A DNA stretch of 24,790 nt from a virus (taxonomy: Duplodnaviria > Heunggongvirae > Uroviricota > Caudoviricetes): the IMG/VR virus record IMGVR_UViG_2711768033_000002. One strand, 5' to 3'. Within the stretch, counting starts at the first letter, position 1, and the number at the start of each line of letters is the position of its first letter. The position numbers were made by a program, and so were the translations under genes. Positions 15,010-24,790 of this stretch are shown one piece after another. Below the pieces are notes generated by a model, which saw nothing but the letters and a program-made list of their open reading frames with translations, did no database searches and was not told the origin of the DNA.

Positions 15010-16125
15010 TTAAATCCCTGCTTTTCTGAATACCTGTGCATCACGCTCACGGAGTTGCTTCAGCGTCAGCCATTCGCCTTTATCGGTGTAAAATTCATCT
15101 GGCGACATACCGCCATCCCGAATCAGCTTTGCCCGGGTTTCCCCCACAATCTGTTTTTGTCTGGTGTAAGGCTGACGCAAAAACCATTCCCTGTAGGTTG
15201 TATCTCCGGCCACCACGCCATCCATGCTGGCCCGCTCAGCCGGGGAAATATCACGAACATCAATACCCAGTTCCTTCGCTGATTTCAGAATGAACGTTTC
15301 CGTTGAGCGGCAGCAGAAATGAATTTTTCCCGGCCCATGCAAATAAGGCACACTGTGACCTACAGGTTTATTATCCAGCGTATATTTGAGGCGATCCCTG
15401 ATTCGACATTGTGGCGTAGTACGATTATCAAGCGTTGATAACCATTGCTTACCCTTAATCAAATCATTATTCGCGCTGGCAAAACTCTCACGGGCAGTAG
15501 CAGCAAGATGTCCAACCGCTGTTTTTGCAATGCTGGCCGCATTAGCCCGGCTCATCTGCAATGCACCATCCTGAAATCCCTTGCTGACATGTCCCCGAAT
15601 TTTTCTTGCGATCTGCTCATTGGTATCCCCCAGCAAAAAACCCTGACGCACCGTATTTGTTATGCGTCTGAGCCGATCCGCCTCAAGATCCAAGGCCCAC
15701 TCACTGAGCAGTCGTCCCTGGAATGGTCGCGCCATTGCAGCGGCGTAAAGTGCATCAGAAGATATACCAACCAGAGGGTGAACATCAGCAACAAAATCAG
15801 GTAGCAGAGAATCAAACAGACTTAACTGATAACCAGCCTCATAAATTGCCAGCTCGTTCAGCTCTCCGGAGAGACTGGTAAACATGCTGTTAATAGCAGC
15901 GCGGTTAACCTCTCTGACACTCGCCAGAAGTGACTCCAGGCGCGTAACGGTAAAACTACCAGGATCGAGGCTGTCCAGTGCTACCAGCAGGCGAGCTGTA
16001 AGCTCCGCATCGCTGTCATTCAGTATTTTCACCATTCTGGCAGCCACACCAGTGCTATAGCGGGATATCCAGACTGCATGAGCAATTGATTCATCACGCA
16101 GCCGTTCATTCACGGTTTGCATCAT
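15010..16125 (-). CDS. Head morphogenesis protein (Mu F / SPP1 gp7 family)
   Basis: 371 aa directly downstream of the portal gene; the Mu F / SPP1 gp7 family call rests on this position plus general resemblance. Confidence 0.75.
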   Translation of the reverse strand: MMQTVNERLRDESIAHAVWISRYSTGVAARMVKILNDSDAELTARLLVALDSLDPGSFTVTRLESLLASVREVNRAAINSMFTSLSGELNELAIYEAGYQLSLFDSLLPDFVADVHPLVGISSDALYAAAMARPFQGRLLSEWALDLEADRLRRITNTVRQGFLLGDTNEQIARKIRGHVSKGFQDGALQMSRANAASIAKTAVGHLAATARESFASANNDLIKGKQWLSTLDNRTTPQCRIRDRLKYTLDNKPVGHSVPYLHGPGKIHFCCRSTETFILKSAKELGIDVRDISPAERASMDGVVAGDTTYREWFLRQPYTRQKQIVGETRAKLIRDGGMSPDEFYTDKGEWLTLKQLRERDAQVFRKAGI

Positions 16126-18816: not shown

Positions 18817-19891
18817 CTTCATCACTCCTTAATCTGGCATCAACCACATTAATATTGATCGCCACAGGCTGGGGATGTTCATTATCCTCCACCGTTTCGA
18901 TCTCTTTGCGCAGCTTCTGGTTCTCTATTCTGCGCCGTTCAATTTCCAGTTCCTGTAGCCGCTTATCTGCACATAATGCCCCGCCAGCAGAAAGCAAACG
19001 CAACAATTCACGCCGGGCGGCAGCCTTATCCTCCAGCAGGATCTCAACACCGTATTTTCCGAGCTTTGACCCTGCATATAATTGCCGCGCATCCCCATCA
19101 AGCAGTGTGGTATCAGCCATATAAAGCTGTCCTGTTCCCTCACCGCAGCACTTCGGGCAATCAGGATTGGGTATGGCGTTATCAACAAAGCCGAGGCCTC
19201 CATATTCCGGCTCGGGTTTACCATCTCTGGAGGCCTGTGCCGCAGCCTTATCGAATTCTGCAATATCACGCCACTGGTAGAGATGATTCTCGCCCCAGCA
19301 ATAACGGCAGTTAACACGGCGAAATTGTGCCAACTGATTGGGGTCGGCCTGGACAATGGCCATCAACTGGCTCACCAGTAAATCCAGGTCTGCGGTATAG
19401 CGTTTCTGGTACTGATTGCGGAAGTAGCTGATAGCACGATAAACCCTGGCATTTCTAAGCATACGGCTGGCGTTGCTGTTAGCTGTCGCACCTTGCCCCT
19501 CATAACCAGCCAGTCGGTATGCCTCTGTCGGCTTTTTCCCCTGAGCAACCAACATGGCGAATTTTGCCTGCTGGTCAGAAATACCGAATTCATCGGGGCA
19601 GAACGAAATTTCTTCCGTGTCCCCCTCAATCAGGAGTGCATCGGATACAGCCTTTTTTTTCTGAGATTTTCCGTTCTGCCTTTGCGCAGTCTGCGCAGTT
19701 TTTTTTCGCGCACTTTTTTGCGCAGTTTTGCGCATTTCTTTCTGCGCATTTTTCGGAGTTTTTTTGATGTAACGACGGGCTGTTGCGTAGTTCAGTCCCC
19801 TTGCTTCACACCATGCCACCGGAGATATACCGGAGCGGGTGTATTCAGCAATATACTCCTGCTGCAACGCCCCCCAGTCCGGTCTGCTCAT
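18797..19891 (-). CDS. Terminase small subunit (extended N-terminal HTH, basic linker, C-terminal Cys cluster)
   Basis: 364 aa; AKFAMLVAQGKKPTEAYRLAGYEGQGATANSNASRMLRNARVYRAI resembles the Terminase_2 HTH signature; additional N-terminal HTH-like segment; CRYC and CPKCC motifs; AGGA RBS 8 nt upstream of the ATG. Confidence 0.72.
   Translation of the reverse strand: MSRPDWGALQQEYIAEYTRSGISPVAWCEARGLNYATARRYIKKTPKNAQKEMRKTAQKSARKKTAQTAQRQNGKSQKKKAVSDALLIEGDTEEISFCPDEFGISDQQAKFAMLVAQGKKPTEAYRLAGYEGQGATANSNASRMLRNARVYRAISYFRNQYQKRYTADLDLLVSQLMAIVQADPNQLAQFRRVNCRYCWGENHLYQWRDIAEFDKAAAQASRDGKPEPEYGGLGFVDNAIPNPDCPKCCGEGTGQLYMADTTLLDGDARQLYAGSKLGKYGVEILLEDKAAARRELLRLLSAGGALCADKRLQELEIERRRIENQKLRKEIETVEDNEHPQPVAININVVDARLRSDEDDLSDA
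19683..19748. repeat. Array of palindromic TGCGCA hexamers separated by T-tracts, inside the 5' part of terS
   Basis: TGCGCA at 19683, 19692, 19719, 19729, 19743, plus CGCGCA at 19707; spacings 9-15 bp; intervening T5-T8 runs. Confidence 0.5.
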
Positions 19892-19894
19892 CAG

Positions 19895-20146
19895 TTAGTC
19901 CTGATTTTTATCCACCCTGAGTAGTTCGCGCAGAGCAAAGGCATCCCCTTTTCTGGCAAGCTTAAACAATGCCGCTCGTAACTCGGCTTCACCTTTCGCT
20001 CTGCCCTTACGGATGGCCGCATAAAAATCTGTCATTGCTTCCCGATTTTCTTTCAGTCGGTTCAGATCAACATCCAGAACGTCAGCGATTTGTTGTGCAG
20101 TCATCCGGCACGCTGCCAGAGACTCGACTTTCGAATACGGAATCAT
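19895..20146 (-). CDS. Small hypothetical protein, possibly DNA-binding
   Basis: 83 aa; ATG 20144-20146 preceded by GGGGGTG at 5 nt; stop is 3 nt before the terS ATG; overlaps the 3' end of the GT-like gene by 65 nt in another frame. Confidence 0.5.
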   Translation of the reverse strand: MIPYSKVESLAACRMTAQQIADVLDVDLNRLKENREAMTDFYAAIRKGRAKGEAELRAALFKLARKGDAFALRELLRVDKNQD

Positions 20147-21014
20147 TTGTCACCCCCATTGATATGCAGGGTGTCTTCTTCCTGTATTTTTCGTGAAGGA
20201 TTTTTACTGCAGCGTTGTTCCAGGTGACCTGATGGTGAATGCGTTTATGGCTGGCACCCATCAGTGAGATTTTTACGCACGACGGCGAATACATGACGGA
20301 GTAAAAACTTTTAACGTAGGTTCCGGAATCCAGATACAGCTCGGTCATTCCGCCGCTGTTTTTCTGCGTCTGTTTCTGCCCTAACTGGACAGCACCGATC
20401 GTCATAAACAATTCACCACAGCGACCGAGATTCGTGTACGTATTCACATCCTCGTTAATGCGCCCCATGAATGAGAACGGTCGATCAACCGAACAGATAA
20501 AGCTGTTCATTGCCTTGCGTTTCACCCACGAAGCATGGCCGCCATTGTCACCAAGAAAATCCCCGCCCTGCGACATAGCGATGGAAAGCGCGGGTATTGA
20601 TTCGTAATACGCCAGCATTTCAGAAAGGATCGCATCCAGTTTCCTTATCGGGAAATAGGCCTGGTCATAGTTGCGATCCACCCGAAACTGGAACTCGTGA
20701 TAATCATCATCGAGCTGAATGAAGTATTTACACCCGACCAGTTTTGCCAGGTCGAAACAGGCATTACGGGCGTAAAAAATTGAGCGGCGATCACCAAAAT
20801 TATCGGCTTCGTCAAAACGACTGGCAATATCGGCTTTGGAAAATACCAGCACCTGTTCACCAAATTCAGCCATGTACTGATGCCGTGTCTTATCTTCATC
20901 ATCAACAACGATAAAAATTTTCCCGGTATAGCCAGCACGACGCAACGTCCGGTAAGTCAGAACTTTGTCCGGTCGCCCGTGAGTCAGAATAAAGGCGCAA
21001 AAATCATCACGCAT
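20082..21014 (-). CDS. Soluble GT-A fold glycosyltransferase candidate
   Basis: 310 aa from ATG 21012-21014 (MRDDFCAFILTHGRPD...), with GGAGGAGGAGGAGGA immediately upstream as SD; the track start at 21038 is an alternative. Motifs KIFIVVDDED and KYFIQLDDDY are spaced like GT-A DxD motifs; no TM segments. Confidence 0.6.
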   Translation of the reverse strand: MRDDFCAFILTHGRPDKVLTYRTLRRAGYTGKIFIVVDDEDKTRHQYMAEFGEQVLVFSKADIASRFDEADNFGDRRSIFYARNACFDLAKLVGCKYFIQLDDDYHEFQFRVDRNYDQAYFPIRKLDAILSEMLAYYESIPALSIAMSQGGDFLGDNGGHASWVKRKAMNSFICSVDRPFSFMGRINEDVNTYTNLGRCGELFMTIGAVQLGQKQTQKNSGGMTELYLDSGTYVKSFYSVMYSPSCVKISLMGASHKRIHHQVTWNNAAVKILHEKYRKKTPCISMGVTNDSVFESRVSGSVPDDCTTNR

Positions 21015-21801
21015 ATTCCTCCTCCTCCTCCCCGCCATGCATGATCTCCACCATGCGCTGCGTCATTCGGACAAATCCATTTTCAATAGCCTGCTGATAA
21101 TCAATGATCACCAGCGCCGACTCCTCGAAAAGGCACTGAATTTCAGCGGGGGCATGAGCGTAATAGTCCGCAATTCTGCTGAAATTAAACACTGTGTGAC
21201 GTTCTGCCGCACACAGGAGGAATTTCTCAATATCAGGATCAAGGGACGCCGAACGTATCCGGCTGATCAGCTCCTGAGTTTTCGTATCGTCGTACAGTTC
21301 ACTGATATCCGGTTTACCGCCCGACGGCTCATAAACAGGCGTATCAATTTTCGTCGTATACGGCTCCTCCTCATTTCCTGTACCGGGCAAAACATCCGTC
21401 AACAGTTCATCAATTTCTGTCGGGATGAAGCCTGTCAGGGAGACATCAAAATCAGCATTGATTAGGTCCGACAGCTCCATCCGCAACAGATCTTCATCCC
21501 AGCCAGCATTCATCGGCAGGCGATTATCTGCCAGGCGGTACGCCTTTTTCTGCTCATCCGTCAGGCCAGACAGAACAATGACCGGAACAGAATCCATTTT
21601 GAGCATTTCAGCCGCCATAACACGACCGTGACCCGCAATAATTTCGCCCTTTTCGTCAATCAGCACCGGATTAGTCCAGCCGAATTGCTTAATACTTTCT
21701 ACCAGTTGTGCCACCTGCTCAGGGCTGTGCGTCCTGGCGTTGTGCGCATACGGTGACAATTCTTGTAATGGGCGATAGACTATCTTTAATTTCTCGCTCA
21801 T
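21007..21801 (-). CDS. ParB-like nuclease-domain protein
   Basis: 264 aa; N-terminal KIVYRPLQELSPYAHNARTHSPEQVAQLVESIKQFGWTNPVLIDEKGEIIAGHGRVMAA fits the ParB/Sulfiredoxin (ParBc) signature including GHGR; acidic C-terminus GGEEEEEYA. Confidence 0.8.
   Translation of the reverse strand: MSEKLKIVYRPLQELSPYAHNARTHSPEQVAQLVESIKQFGWTNPVLIDEKGEIIAGHGRVMAAEMLKMDSVPVIVLSGLTDEQKKAYRLADNRLPMNAGWDEDLLRMELSDLINADFDVSLTGFIPTEIDELLTDVLPGTGNEEEPYTTKIDTPVYEPSGGKPDISELYDDTKTQELISRIRSASLDPDIEKFLLCAAERHTVFNFSRIADYYAHAPAEIQCLFEESALVIIDYQQAIENGFVRMTQRMVEIMHGGEEEEEYA
21017..21031. repeat. (TCC)5 trinucleotide repeat
   Basis: Plus tcctcctcctcctcc; on the minus strand it encodes the EEEEE tail of the ParB-like protein and forms the GGAGG SD (or RRRR codons) for the downstream GT-like gene. 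Confidence 0.6.
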
Positions 21802-21938: not shown

Positions 21939-23396
21939 TTAGGAGCGCCAAAAAAAACCTGAAAACAATATAATAACAGGATAAATTTCAAGGCGACCAA
22001 GAATCATAGCTATGCACATTAAACATTTTGCAATGTCATTAAGCACTCCGAATGACGATGCAGTAGCCCCAAAACCTAATCCCATATTATTAATACATGC
22101 AGCCACTGTTGCAAATGATGTAAGAAAATCATATCCCATACCATTTAACACCAGTATAAAAAACACCGTGAAGAGAGTATAAAGAAAAAAGAAACTCCAT
22201 ACAGACCTCATTACACGATCTGTAACTATCTTCCCTCCTACATTTACACTCAACAACGCTCTGGGATGAGAAAGCTGATTTATCTCGTGTTTGCTTTGTT
22301 TGAAAAGTATAAGAAATCGAAGTGACTTAATTCCACCACAAGTTGAACCTATACATCCCCCAAAGAAACTTGACAACAGCAAAAACACTATCGTGTGCGT
22401 GGGCCAACTTGCATAATCCTGCGTAGCTAAACCATTATCAGTGAGCATGGAGCTGGCAAGAAAAAACGAATGAATAAAACTTCCATGCAAGTCATACATA
22501 CCTATATGCCAGACCTGGAAAGAGGTAACAATGATCACCCCTAAGGCTATTAACAGAAAGAAACGAAGTTCAATATCTCTGATTAAAGGTTTTATCGTTT
22601 TCCTGCTAATAACAATATACCAAAGAGTGAAGTTGAAAGCCGATAGCAGGGAAAAAGAACCAGCCACCAGCTCAACCAAATAGTTATTAAAATATCCGAT
22701 ACTCTCGCTATGAGTTGAGAAACCACCAAGCGAAACTGTGGAAATCCCGTGACAAATAGCATCAAACAAAGGCATTCCTGCAAGTCTATAACAGACAATA
22801 CAAGCAATACCTAATAAAGAATAAGTTATCCACAGTGTCCGTGACGTATCGGCCAGGCGGGGAGTGAGTTTGTCATCCTTAAATGGCCCCGGCATTTCTG
22901 ACTGATAAAGCTTTGCACCACCAATACCCAATAATGGCAATACAGCAACCGCCAGAACAATAACTCCTAAACCACCTATAAAATTTAACTGTGACCGATA
23001 GTACAAATATGCCCGAGGTAATGAACTAACATCATCAATTACAGTTGCTCCTGTTGTTGTTATTCCAGAAACCCCTTCAAACAGAGCATCAATGAACGTT
23101 AAATTAAGTTCTGAGTCAATCCATAAAGGGAATGCACTAATAACAGAAAACAAAATCCAAAACATTACAATTATAATAAACCCATCACGGGTACGTAATT
23201 GAATGCCAGATTTCTTAGTTGTATACCACGCTCCGCCACCAATGCAAAAAAATATAACGAAAGTTATAAAGAAAACGAACAGGCTTTTTTCTTTATAAAA
23301 CAATGCTACAACCATTGGTGGCAACATTGAAAGACTATAGAGCCAAACCAGGAACCCACACATATGAGTAACAACTCTTACATGAGATGTATTCAT
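21939..23396 (-). CDS. trkG: TrkH/TrkG-family potassium uptake membrane protein
   Basis: 485 aa from ATG 23394-23396 (MNTSHVRVV...); many TM segments; four TrkH-type filter motifs (SGITTTGATV, LGGFSTH, GGCIGSTCGG, NMGLGFG); markedly AT-rich; the prophage context matches the known location of trkG in Rac. Confidence 0.85.
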   Translation of the reverse strand: MNTSHVRVVTHMCGFLVWLYSLSMLPPMVVALFYKEKSLFVFFITFVIFFCIGGGAWYTTKKSGIQLRTRDGFIIIVMFWILFSVISAFPLWIDSELNLTFIDALFEGVSGITTTGATVIDDVSSLPRAYLYYRSQLNFIGGLGVIVLAVAVLPLLGIGGAKLYQSEMPGPFKDDKLTPRLADTSRTLWITYSLLGIACIVCYRLAGMPLFDAICHGISTVSLGGFSTHSESIGYFNNYLVELVAGSFSLLSAFNFTLWYIVISRKTIKPLIRDIELRFFLLIALGVIIVTSFQVWHIGMYDLHGSFIHSFFLASSMLTDNGLATQDYASWPTHTIVFLLLSSFFGGCIGSTCGGIKSLRFLILFKQSKHEINQLSHPRALLSVNVGGKIVTDRVMRSVWSFFFLYTLFTVFFILVLNGMGYDFLTSFATVAACINNMGLGFGATASSFGVLNDIAKCLMCIAMILGRLEIYPVIILFSGFFWRS

Positions 23397-23533
23397 ATCT
23401 AAATATTCTTTCAATTATAACCACCTTGCTGCAATATTATGATTATACTGTATAAAATTTAACTCCTCTTAGATCTTACTTCACTGTTCCTTATGAAACA
23501 ATCATCAAAATGAATCATATTGTAGTTAAGATT
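23397..23533 (-). promoter_or_regulatory. AT-rich putative promoter region for trkG
   Basis: Minus strand has two TATAAT hexamers (cagTATAATcat and ggtTATAATtga) within 50 nt of the trkG ATG; no good -35 match was found, so this is tentative. Confidence 0.3.
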
Positions 23534-23998
23534 TTACTTTAAACACTGCTCGGTTATGTATTGCTGAGCACCTTCAAGTTGGGCCTGCATCATTACCAGT
23601 CGTTCCCGGAGGGTGAAATAATCCCGTTCAGCGGTGTCTGCCAGTCGGGGGGAGGCTGCATTATCCACGCCGGAGGCGGTGGTGGCTTCACGCACTGACT
23701 GACAGACTGCTTTGATGTGCAACCGACGACGACCAGCGGCAACATCATCACGCAGAACATCATTTTCAGCTTTCGCATCAGCTAACTCCTTCGTGTATTT
23801 TGCATCGAGCGCAGCAACATCACGCTGACGCATCTGCATGTCAGTAATTGCCGCGTTCGCCAGCTTCAGTTCTCTGGCATTTTTGTCGCGCTGTTCTTTG
23901 TAGGCGATGGCGTTATCACGGTAATGATTAACACCCCATGACAGGCAGACGACGATGCAGATAACCAGAGCGGAGATAATCGCGGTTACTCTGTTCAT
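23534..23998 (-). CDS. Rz: i-spanin Rz
   Basis: 154 aa from ATG 23996-23998, forming an ATGA overlap with the endolysin stop; N-terminal TM ([16 protein letters not shown]) and coiled-coil periplasmic domain; TAA at 23534-23536. Confidence 0.85.
23593..23778 (-). CDS. Rz1: o-spanin Rz1 (lipoprotein), nested inside Rz in another frame
   Basis: 61 aa; lipobox VVGC followed by TS; Pro-rich (PPPPP, QPPP); fully embedded in Rz. Confidence 0.8.
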
Positions 23999-24492
23999 TG
24001 CTGACCCCACAAACAGATTTCACGCTCAATCTCACGACGAGTCATGAGACCTTTCCATTGCTTACCGCCAGCATATGTCCAGCGACGTAGCTGATCACAT
24101 GCGCCTTTGATATCGCCCTGGTTTATTTTGCGAAGAAGCGTCGATGTTCTGAAATTGCCAGCACCCACGTTGTAAACGAATGAGTAAAGAGCGCCGCGCG
24201 TTGTTTCCGGTATATCGACTTTGATGTACGGGTTAATTTGTCTGGCGACCGTGGCAAGGTCTTTATTCAAGAGTGTTTTGCATTCTGCTTTGGTATACGT
24301 TTTACCGAGCATGATGTCTTTTCCTGTATGCCCGTGACATACAGTCCATACACCAACAATATCTTTGTATGGTATGTAGCTGACACCTTCCAGACCATCG
24401 TTACCACTTGGGCCAGTGATTAACACTGATGCTATAGCAATTGCTCCGCCACCAATAGCAGCAGCAACGACTTTTCGTAATGATGGAGGCAT
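23995..24492 (-). CDS. R: SAR endolysin (T4-lysozyme-like, phage 21 R type)
   Basis: 165 aa from ATG 24490-24492 ([27 protein letters not shown]...); Gly/Ala-rich signal-anchor-release segment followed by a lysozyme core; the 9-codon track extension is encoded by IS2 sequence and uses TTG. Confidence 0.88.
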
Positions 24493-24790
24493 AGACTGGC
24501 CCCCTGAATCTCCAGACAACCAATATCACTTAAATAAGTGATAGTCTTAATACTAGTTTTTAGACTAGTCATTGGAGAACAGATGATTGATGTCTTAGGG
24601 CCGGAGAAACGCAGACGGCGTACCACACAGGAAAAGATCGCAATTGTTCAGCAGAGCTTTGAACCGGGGATGACGGTCTCCCTCGTTGCCCGGCAACATG
24701 GTGTAGCAGCCAGCCAGTTATTTCTCTGGCGTAAGCAATACCAGGAAGGAAGTCTTACTGCTGTCGCCGCCGGAGAACAGGTTGTTCCTG
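24492..24790 (+). mobile_element. IS2 (IS3 family) end carrying the orfA start, truncated by the window edge
   Basis: TAGACTGGCCCCCTGAATCTCCAGACAACCAATATCACTTAAATAAGTGATAG from 24492 matches the IS2 terminal inverted repeat as I recall it; followed by orfA. Confidence 0.85.
24583..24790 (+). CDS. insC: IS2 orfA (InsC-type transposase/regulator), 5' partial
   Basis: ATG 24583-24585; [69 protein letters not shown]; runs off the window end. Confidence 0.85.

Follow-up and report, generated by a model that had tools for sequence, protein, structure and literature searches.

The stretch of DNA examined here (hereinafter the window) is 24,790 nucleotides (nt) of a Caudoviricetes virus (IMG/VR record IMGVR_UViG_2711768033_000002) and corresponds to the late region of a lambdoid, Rac-type Escherichia coli prophage, with its genes on the minus strand. 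Its small terminase gene, terS, contains an array of palindromic TGCGCA hexamers. Based on comparisons of its sequence with those of related phages, we propose that this array is probably the recognition part of the packaging-initiation (pac) site and is read by the N-terminal helix-turn-helix (HTH) domain of TerS itself (hereinafter the N-domain). Together, array and N-domain likely constitute a relative of the pac system of phage P1 with a different hexamer, in which reader and site lie in one gene. We infer physical binding, the role of Arg39 of the N-domain, the position of the cut and headful packaging.

The hexamer array in terS

A sequence-only reading that preceded this analysis had reported five perfect copies of TGCGCA and one variant within 66 bp of terS. 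These are real and lie exactly where it placed them (Table 1). A count of the hexamer across the window, which that reading had proposed as a check, finds 7 of the 12 copies outside the array and no other cluster; within terS the next copy is at nt 980. TGCGCA is the most locally clustered hexamer of the window, reaching five per 66 bp as compared to three for the runners-up. The Poisson estimate for such clustering by chance is about 4e-7, and in 2000 order-2 Markov simulations the highest count per 66 bp was three. In a complete 38.7-kb Rac-type relative, the terS array is the only spot with even two TGCGCA copies within 80 bp. The observation is therefore confirmed: 5 of the 12 copies in 24.8 kb fall within 66 bp, none of the 2000 simulations reaches that number, and the cluster is the sole one in the relative.

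On the coding strand the array runs, in order, AAT GCG CAG, AAA GAA, ATG CGC AAA, ACT GCG CAA AAA, AGT GCG CGA AAA AAA, ACT GCG CAG and ACT GCG CAA. Five of its slots thus take the form NNT-GCG-CAR (or CGA), encoding x-Ala-Gln/Arg, and the copy at 19729 falls in ATG-CGC (Met-Arg). The encoded peptide is a Lys-rich stretch (...KNAQKEMRKTAQKSARKKTAQTAQRQNGKSQKKK...) spanning residues 48–70. Tandem Repeats Finder (TRF) additionally detects a 36-bp (12-codon) imperfect duplication in this region. The start-to-start spacings in the window are 9, 15, 12, 10 and 14 bp, and across the relatives they range from 7 to 16 bp with modes at 12 and 14. Hence, the idea that the copies recur at about one helical turn is loosely true at best, and with gaps of 9–15 bp a strict phasing does not hold. 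The T-runs separating the hexamers, given earlier as 5–8 nt, are 3–8 nt long and are the Lys codons (AAA/AAG) of the opposite strand. With only about 10% of the spacings at 10–11 bp, we reject helical phasing as the organizing principle of the array, and with it the rationale of a phased, bent structure. The core of the sequence-only reading, namely a protein-binding array of hexamers that is a candidate recognition (pac) site for TerS, is upheld by the comparisons below, by the covariation of the hexamer with the HTH domain and by the homology to PacA of P1.

Conservation of the array among relatives

Among the close relatives (80 IMG/VR loci with 25 distinct 5′ ends), the array comprises 4–6 perfect TGCGCA copies; lone copies are lost by point mutation and the copy number shifts via in-frame indels. 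In Klebsiella phages, with a TerS identity of only about 44%, six TGCGCA occur at the equivalent place, using all three frames (TAQ, LRT, KCAE), and in one 8-kb Klebsiella locus 9 of the 11 copies lie within the first 400 nt of terS. A survey with one genome per species further recovered a TGCGCA array at terS nt ~131–210 in Serratia fonticola, Superficieibacter, Buttiauxella, Citrobacter, Raoultella, Enterobacter and Pantoea, the TerS proteins of the array-bearing relatives being 36–55% identical. In an unbiased hexamer search of 7-kb loci, TGCGCA was top-clustered or tied in nearly all, with the Pantoea locus (L100) led by the overlapping CTGCGC.

Several relatives of the Klebsiella, Citrobacter and Raoultella type (L082, L084, L093–L096, L098, L113) have a second cluster of three TGCGCA at terS nt ~348–400, about 150 bp downstream of the first, in frames 2, 2 and 1 and encoding the peptide VAQAIAQQQKASIVRT. 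This cluster, which resembles the bipartite layout of the P1 pac site, is not found in the E. coli Rac type.

Three lines of evidence bear on whether the array is maintained as DNA or as peptide. In 21 divergent representatives, whose copies and lineages are not fully independent, Ala-Gln is encoded as NNT-GCG-CAR in 81 of 86 instances within the arrays as compared to 11 of 55 in the remainder of those genes (Fisher 2e-20); GCG serves as the Ala codon in 84/86 and 32/55, respectively. The residue ahead of the Ala is of ten kinds (T, S, N, P, D, I, A, F, G, H), with its codon ending in T each time. The hexamers are distributed over the three reading frames as 85/21/6 (n = 112), encoding AQ, [MLV]R or CA, with 27 of the 112 in the two minor frames. 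Finally, between the window and the relative L198, 35 of 36 bases are identical in the hexamer slots as against 50 of 75 in the intervening DNA. Judged by the codon test, the use of three frames and the fact that the hexamers are better conserved than the DNA separating them, the array is selected at the DNA level and not as a peptide. The suggestion that the segment is constrained at two levels, as a site and as coding sequence, holds up under the same tests.

Phage Rac-SA53 (L083, KU052037) has, according to its annotation, undergone a deletion that fuses gpO to terS and removes the N-domain and the first hexamer. Only two of its five remaining slots are perfect, the other three being mutated to TTCGCA, TGCGCT and TGCCCA. 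This decay is consistent with relaxed selection following the loss of the putative reader in this single case. In Rac-SA53 the genes just upstream, which replace those for TrkG, the ParB-like protein and the glycosyltransferase, are those of heat-labile enterotoxin IIa.

The N-terminal domain and its covariation with the hexamer

TerS is organized as an extra N-terminal domain of about 45 residues (MSRPDWGALQQEYIAEYTRSGISPVAWCEARGLNYATARRYIKK), the Lys-rich linker encoded by the array and the Terminase_2 body. An AlphaFold2 (AF2) model of residues 1–60 has a mean predicted local distance difference test (pLDDT) score of 76.5, rising to 85–88 over residues 11–40, and shows helices at 6–20, 24–31 and 35–41, with residue 39 in the third. 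A Foldseek search with the model places HTH DNA-binding domains on top, yet none is significant (E ≥ 1.5; best 1.5). Likewise, both PacA and the window TerS show sub-threshold Pfam/NCBIfam matches only, to HTH domains of the transposase-like kind (HTH_23/28/Tnp_1). In a library of 1.84 billion proteins, the N-domain was recovered in about 190 clusters (50% identity); it occurs only on small terminases and, save for a handful of multi-repeat matches, at their N-termini.

We compared the third helix with the array in 65 non-redundant N-termini drawn from 178 loci. The helix ...T-A-R-R-Y-I-K-K goes with TGCGCA in 56/56 cases and ...[TS]-A-K-R-Y-I-K-[VI] with TGCGAA/TTCGCA in 8/8, both counts ignoring kinship and hence not being phylogenetically independent. 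The single representative of the Shiga toxin (Stx) phages, with ...T-A-R-T-R-I-K-M, has GATCAT (1/1). The closest pair is that of L173 and L183, whose N-domains differ solely by R39K and K44V and whose arrays are of TGCGCA and TGCGAA, respectively. Both specificities are found on the zinc-ribbon Terminase_2 body (window and L173 vs. Yersinia L111) as well as on the RothC-like body (L187 vs. L183). Therefore, the hexamer tracks the N-domain and not the body of TerS. No array accompanies the homologues devoid of the N-terminal extension (in Acinetobacter, Collimonas, Clostridium and others).

Other combinations of an N-terminal HTH and repeats occupy the same place. In Serratia aquatilis (L090/L092) an unrelated N-terminal HTH is followed at terS nt ~127–215 by three copies of (G/A)GTGGAAAC and an inverted GTTTCC, and in Erwinia/Izhakiella (L091/L099) another unrelated N-terminal HTH is followed at nt ~135–195 by three copies of GGGGCA and an inverted one. 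These suggest that the design of a reader with its site in the linker has arisen or been swapped repeatedly.

The linker-coding DNA (window ~19650–19770) has runs of A7–A9, and in the IMG/VR relative L068 an extra A frameshifts terS. The protein databases contain many products of 49–126 residues composed of the N-domain and an out-of-frame tail (P0121–P0131). A homologue search with the 47-residue N-domain returned short products only and served for a shallow alignment. The short products may stem from sequencing errors at homopolymers, from decaying prophages or from slippage yielding a free N-domain.

Relationship to the pac site and PacA of phage P1

The P1 pac site is reportedly the subject of work by Sternberg and Coulby in 1987 and 1990 and by Skorupski and colleagues in 1994. 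It consists of seven hexamers arranged as HEX4 and HEX3 that are bound by PacA/PacB under Dam control, and the synonymous recoding of these hexamers lowers packaging about 9-fold (PMC10028697). In the P1 record, pacA has TGATCA at nt 194, 201, 213 and 228, TGATCG at 324 and TGATCA at 336 and 347. The annotated cleavage (nt 276–285) thus falls between the group of four (nt 194–233) and the group of three (nt 324–352), and the site for the integration host factor (IHF) is at nt 256–268.

While BLASTP relates the N-domain to PacA of P1 only weakly (E 0.007), a 12-sequence N-domain profile matches it in hhalign at 92.9% (E 4e-7) and matches PacA of the P1-like phage D6 at 97.8% (E 7e-13). The PHROG families are also cross-linked at E ~1e-4: residues 6–79 of the window TerS match the PacA family phrog_1711, residues 3–104 of PacA match the Stx-phage TerS family phrog_370, and the Stx-phage TerS in turn matches phrog_1711. 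On these profile matches, the TerS N-domain is homologous to the N-terminus of PacA. This extends over about 45 residues only, the body of the window TerS being Terminase_2/phrog_51 and P1 PacA belonging to phrog_1711.

The two sites share several features. Both comprise several 6-bp TG-NN-CA palindromes at irregular spacing (7–15 bp in P1) inside the small-terminase gene. Further, in both, the hexamers follow the part coding for the N-terminal HTH, occur in several frames and persist at the DNA level despite drift of the peptide. For this last pattern, P1 and Cronobacter phage JK004 provide a positive control: their N-domains are identical and their linker peptides have diverged (29/75 residues identical), with the hexamer positions kept and identical bases making up 37/42 in the hexamers as compared to 91/183 outside them. 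The two systems also differ. The P1 hexamer TGATCA/G includes the Dam site GATC, whereas TGCGCA does not; E. coli is not known to have a GCGC methylase. We accordingly rejected a P1-style control by methylation, there being neither a GATC in the hexamer nor an annotated methylase in the complete Rac-type phage. The array of the window begins directly after the HTH (nt ~140), while that of P1 begins about 60 nt later. P1 has an IHF site between its hexamer clusters and the window terS is without a match to the IHF consensus.

Comparison with other packaging systems

Phages P22, SPP1 and Sf6 had been offered as analogues of the window. They are alike in having pac in or beside terS, and the window TerS body belongs to the Terminase_2 family; they are not the closest, that place being taken by P1. 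In P22, pac is one asymmetric sequence of 22 bp, and the pacL/pacR sites of SPP1 are A-tract boxes (PMC9611059). An array of hexamers with an extra N-terminal domain as its reader, as proposed for the window terS, is found in neither P22 nor SPP1. The recognition of pac by small terminases in general is still called unclear and controversial, with sequence-specific binding in vitro being hard to show for P22, Sf6, SPP1 and SF6 (PMC9611059). A further point of comparison is cosB of phage lambda, with which the window would share the principle of repeated short sites, a small terminase reading them with its N-terminal HTH and a large subunit being positioned. In cosB the sites R1–R3 are bound by the N-terminal winged HTH of gpNu1, together with IHF. 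However, lambda is a cos system with 16-bp R elements upstream of the gene and an HTH of a different family. The sites of the window are inside the open reading frame (ORF), and its TerL is of the Terminase_6 type, which is typical of headful packagers.

The Stx-converting phages (933W/AU6-type, phrog_370) have an N-terminal domain of the same family, as indicated by tblastn and PHROG, and an array at the same position; their TerS has the helix N-T-A-R-T-R-I-K-M and a different body. In the Stx1 phage AU6Stx1 (L115), terS nt ~135–185 contains four copies of (C/T)GATCAT encoding IDHEIDHKTDHEIDH, each with a P1-like Dam GATC, and nt 235–264 contain two downstream TGCGCA in frame 0 (KCAK, NCAN). 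TerS of the AU6Stx1 type was found in about 250 Stx-phage records. The GATCAT repeats are a possible candidate for a Dam-regulated pac site. A published description of pac in Stx phages (933W) was not found in a literature search that had most subscription papers outside its reach. Experimental mapping of pac is available for the prophage Gally of E. coli LF82 (bioRxiv 2022.10.28.514194). Its TerS, of 140 residues, is of another type, so the mapping result does not transfer and we set it aside.

A model for recognition and the alternatives

In the mechanism that we posit, a TerS oligomer would present several N-domains on flexible Lys-rich linkers, each docking on one TGCGCA hexamer of the array (4–6 copies at an irregular spacing of 7–16 bp). 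The third helix (YATARRY) would enter the major groove, with Arg39 helping to read hexamer position 5; in an N-domain placed on ACTGCGCAAA, residue 39 would contact position 5. The multivalent complex would mark phage concatemers and recruit TerL (Terminase_6 type), which would then make the first cut nearby and open a headful packaging series. Such multivalent binding would explain the tolerance of single-copy loss and of variable spacing.

Several observations weigh against the identification of the array as a TerS-read pac site related to that of P1. Neither end-mapping nor binding data for TGCGCA-type phages were found in the literature searched. Single hexamers are dispensable, the commonest relative having four perfect copies and in-frame indels altering their number. 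The covariation counts of 56/56 and 8/8 are not independent of phylogeny, the model is of medium confidence (pLDDT 76.5) and the fold search is without a significant match (best E 1.5). Unlike P1, in which groups of four and three flank the cut, the window has one cluster of 5–6, and the annotation of ON470614, a complete related phage, lists neither a GCGC methylase nor any other methyltransferase. The IHF consensus WATCAANNNNTTR is absent from terS and has its sole match in the window at 15457, although its degeneracy leaves room for a weak site. TerL and PacB do not match convincingly by BLASTP (best E 0.83), with the generic phrog_2 alone being common to both. Moreover, P1 PacA too has T-A-R-R-Y, yet reads TGATCA; therefore, residue 39 cannot be the sole determinant of specificity and other residues must contribute.

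The covariation establishes a reader and its site but is silent on the purpose of the binding. Hence, the array might instead be an autoregulatory operator, at which the N-domain throttles the transcription or translation of terS–terL with packaging specificity residing elsewhere. Its position early in a late-operon gene would suit such a role. However, the homologous arrangement in P1 is a mapped pac site whose recoding lowers packaging, the N-domain and array are confined to small terminases, at their N-termini, and no promoter or operator logic is evident. We consider this unlikely as the main function, while noting that operator and pac roles are not mutually exclusive. It is more improbable still that the array belongs to a different binding protein and that the connection to TerS is incidental. 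Candidates would be the neighboring ParB-like protein, a nucleoid protein of the host or, as FspI recognizes TGCGCA, a restriction-modification enzyme. ParB proteins do bind clustered sites, and a ParB_N protein and a glycosyltransferase are encoded just upstream. Yet the Klebsiella, Yersinia, GER2 and RothC-type phages possess the array without these neighbors, and on several TerS bodies the identity of the hexamer goes along with an N-domain residue.

Two further explanations dispense with a binding protein altogether. The hexamers could be mere Ala-Gln codons in a slippage-prone low-complexity peptide, (K-x-A-Q-K)n, with selection acting on a Lys-rich linker that is flexible or binds DNA, a notion in keeping with the 36-bp duplication, the variation of copy number by in-frame indels and the presence of a Lys-rich linker in all types. 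It is largely refuted, and we give it very little weight: the hexamer occurs in three frames that give different peptides (AQ, MR/LR/VR, CA), GCG is the favored Ala codon in the array with a T-ending codon ahead of it whatever the residue, and the kind of hexamer changes along with a single residue of the domain upstream. Alternatively, the repeats might mark the joint of a recombination or module-junction hotspot at which N-domains are shuffled, with no binding function. The occurrence of N-domain and array on at least four bodies and the Rac-SA53 deletion fusion, which ends in the array, might be cited in its favor, but it leaves both the conservation of the hexamer across genera and the covariation with residue 39 unexplained and is the least credible of the four.

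Recognition by the TerS N-domain also admits a broader proposal, which we advance tentatively and rate slightly below even: N-domain and array may form a self-contained, portable cassette for pac specificity within about 210 nt, placed on at least four unrelated TerS bodies (P1 PacA, the Rac/Klebsiella zinc-ribbon Terminase_2, the RothC type and the 933W/GER2 type) and retuned in its specificity through one or two positions in the recognition helix. If so, R39K plus K44V/I would switch TGCGCA to TGCGAA.

Genomic context of terS

The features of the window are collected in Table 1.

Table 1. Coordinates of terS, its N-domain and hexamers, and the neighboring genes in the window (nt, nucleotide; aa, amino acid).
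Feature	Window position	Strand	Position in terS	Remarks
Lysis genes	23534-24519	-		
trkG	21939-23414	-		TrkH-family K+ transporter, E 5e-145
ParB_N-domain protein	21007-21801	-		
TET-associated-type glycosyltransferase	20082-21038	-		PF20691, E 6e-35; phrog_842 'beta-glucosyl-HMC-alpha-glucosyltransferase'
Small ORF, 83 aa	19895-20146	-		Stops 3 nt ahead of terS
terS, 364 aa	18797-19891	-		N-terminal HTH, Lys-rich linker, Terminase_2 body with CxxC...CxxC
TerS N-terminal PacA-like HTH domain	19757-19891	-	aa 1-45	Proposed hexamer reader; hhalign, PHROG, AF2 model
Arg39 codon	19775-19777	-		Third helix (recognition position); covaries with hexamer position 5
Hexamer array	19683-19748	-	nt 144-209, codons 48-70	Five TGCGCA and one variant
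Hexamer 1	19743-19748		nt 144	AAT GCG CAG (N-A-Q); slot kept in all E. coli-type relatives
Hexamer 2	19729-19734		nt 158	Out-of-frame, ATG CGC AAA (M-R-K); TGTGCA or TGCGTA in some relatives
Hexamer 3	19719-19724		nt 168	ACT GCG CAA (T-A-Q)
Hexamer 4 slot	19707-19712		nt 180	Variant CGCGCA; coding strand TGCGCG (S-A-R); perfect TGCGCA in many relatives
Hexamer 5	19692-19697		nt 195	ACT GCG CAG (T-A-Q)
Hexamer 6	19683-19688		nt 204	ACT GCG CAA (T-A-Q); TGCACA in the commonest relative
terL, 436 aa	17515-18825	-		Terminase_6N and Terminase_6C

The assignment of terS rests on an above-threshold match to Pfam Terminase_2 (PF03592; 36.1 bits against a cutoff of 26.1, residues 122–316) and on phrog_51 'terminase small subunit' (E 6e-75). 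TerL, presumably the partner nuclease/ATPase that cuts near the hexamer site, scores 32.8 bits against the PBSX-family model TIGR01547, below its cutoff of 105. Searching solved structures by sequence, with TerS, TerL and the N-domain profile as queries, gave nothing usable and no solved relative. The window further encodes a DUF4055 portal, a Mu-F-like protein, a P22-like coat and lambda-like tail genes; the Terminase_6N/6C TerL, DUF4055 portal, Mu-F-like protein and P22-like coat form a set typical of headful packagers. Records related to the window come from induced prophages of E. coli and contain int, recET, racC, kil and sieB.

The gene trkG, the known Rac moron, is placed in the late operon between the lysis and packaging genes of what is apparently an intact prophage. 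The glycosyltransferase gene overlaps that of the ParB_N protein, both lying between trkG and terS (20082–21801, minus strand); neither the window nor the complete relative ON470614 has a TET/JBP oxygenase or a methyltransferase. The 83-residue ORF is without a match in Pfam and NCBIfam, and it matches the middle (positions 145–218 of 319; E 8e-23) of phrog_309, a different small-terminase family. Going by this match, it could be what is left of a terS that was displaced, or else a small protein accessory to packaging.

Implications

Papers tying TGCGCA arrays or Rac-type or Stx phages to a PacA-like cassette were not found, which, given the incomplete coverage of the literature, is weak evidence of their absence. 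The family offers a clean test case for TerS–pac recognition, with a discrete reader domain and a simple repeated 6-bp site. Its interest lies in the natural specificity switch on near-identical domains, Arg39 going with TGCGCA and Lys39 with TGCGAA, because this bears on the problem of how TerS recognizes pac. It also links the long-isolated P1 pac/PacA paradigm to common enterobacterial prophages, namely those of the Rac type, those of Klebsiella, Enterobacter and Citrobacter and probably the Stx-converting ones. In practical terms, this could serve the prediction of pac sites and of the lateral and generalized transduction of neighboring chromosomal genes, as well as the packaging of phagemids, be it for their design or for blocking it. 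Should the portable cassette prove true, packaging specificity, and hence the DNA that is transduced, might be predictable from sequence and open to deliberate rewiring.

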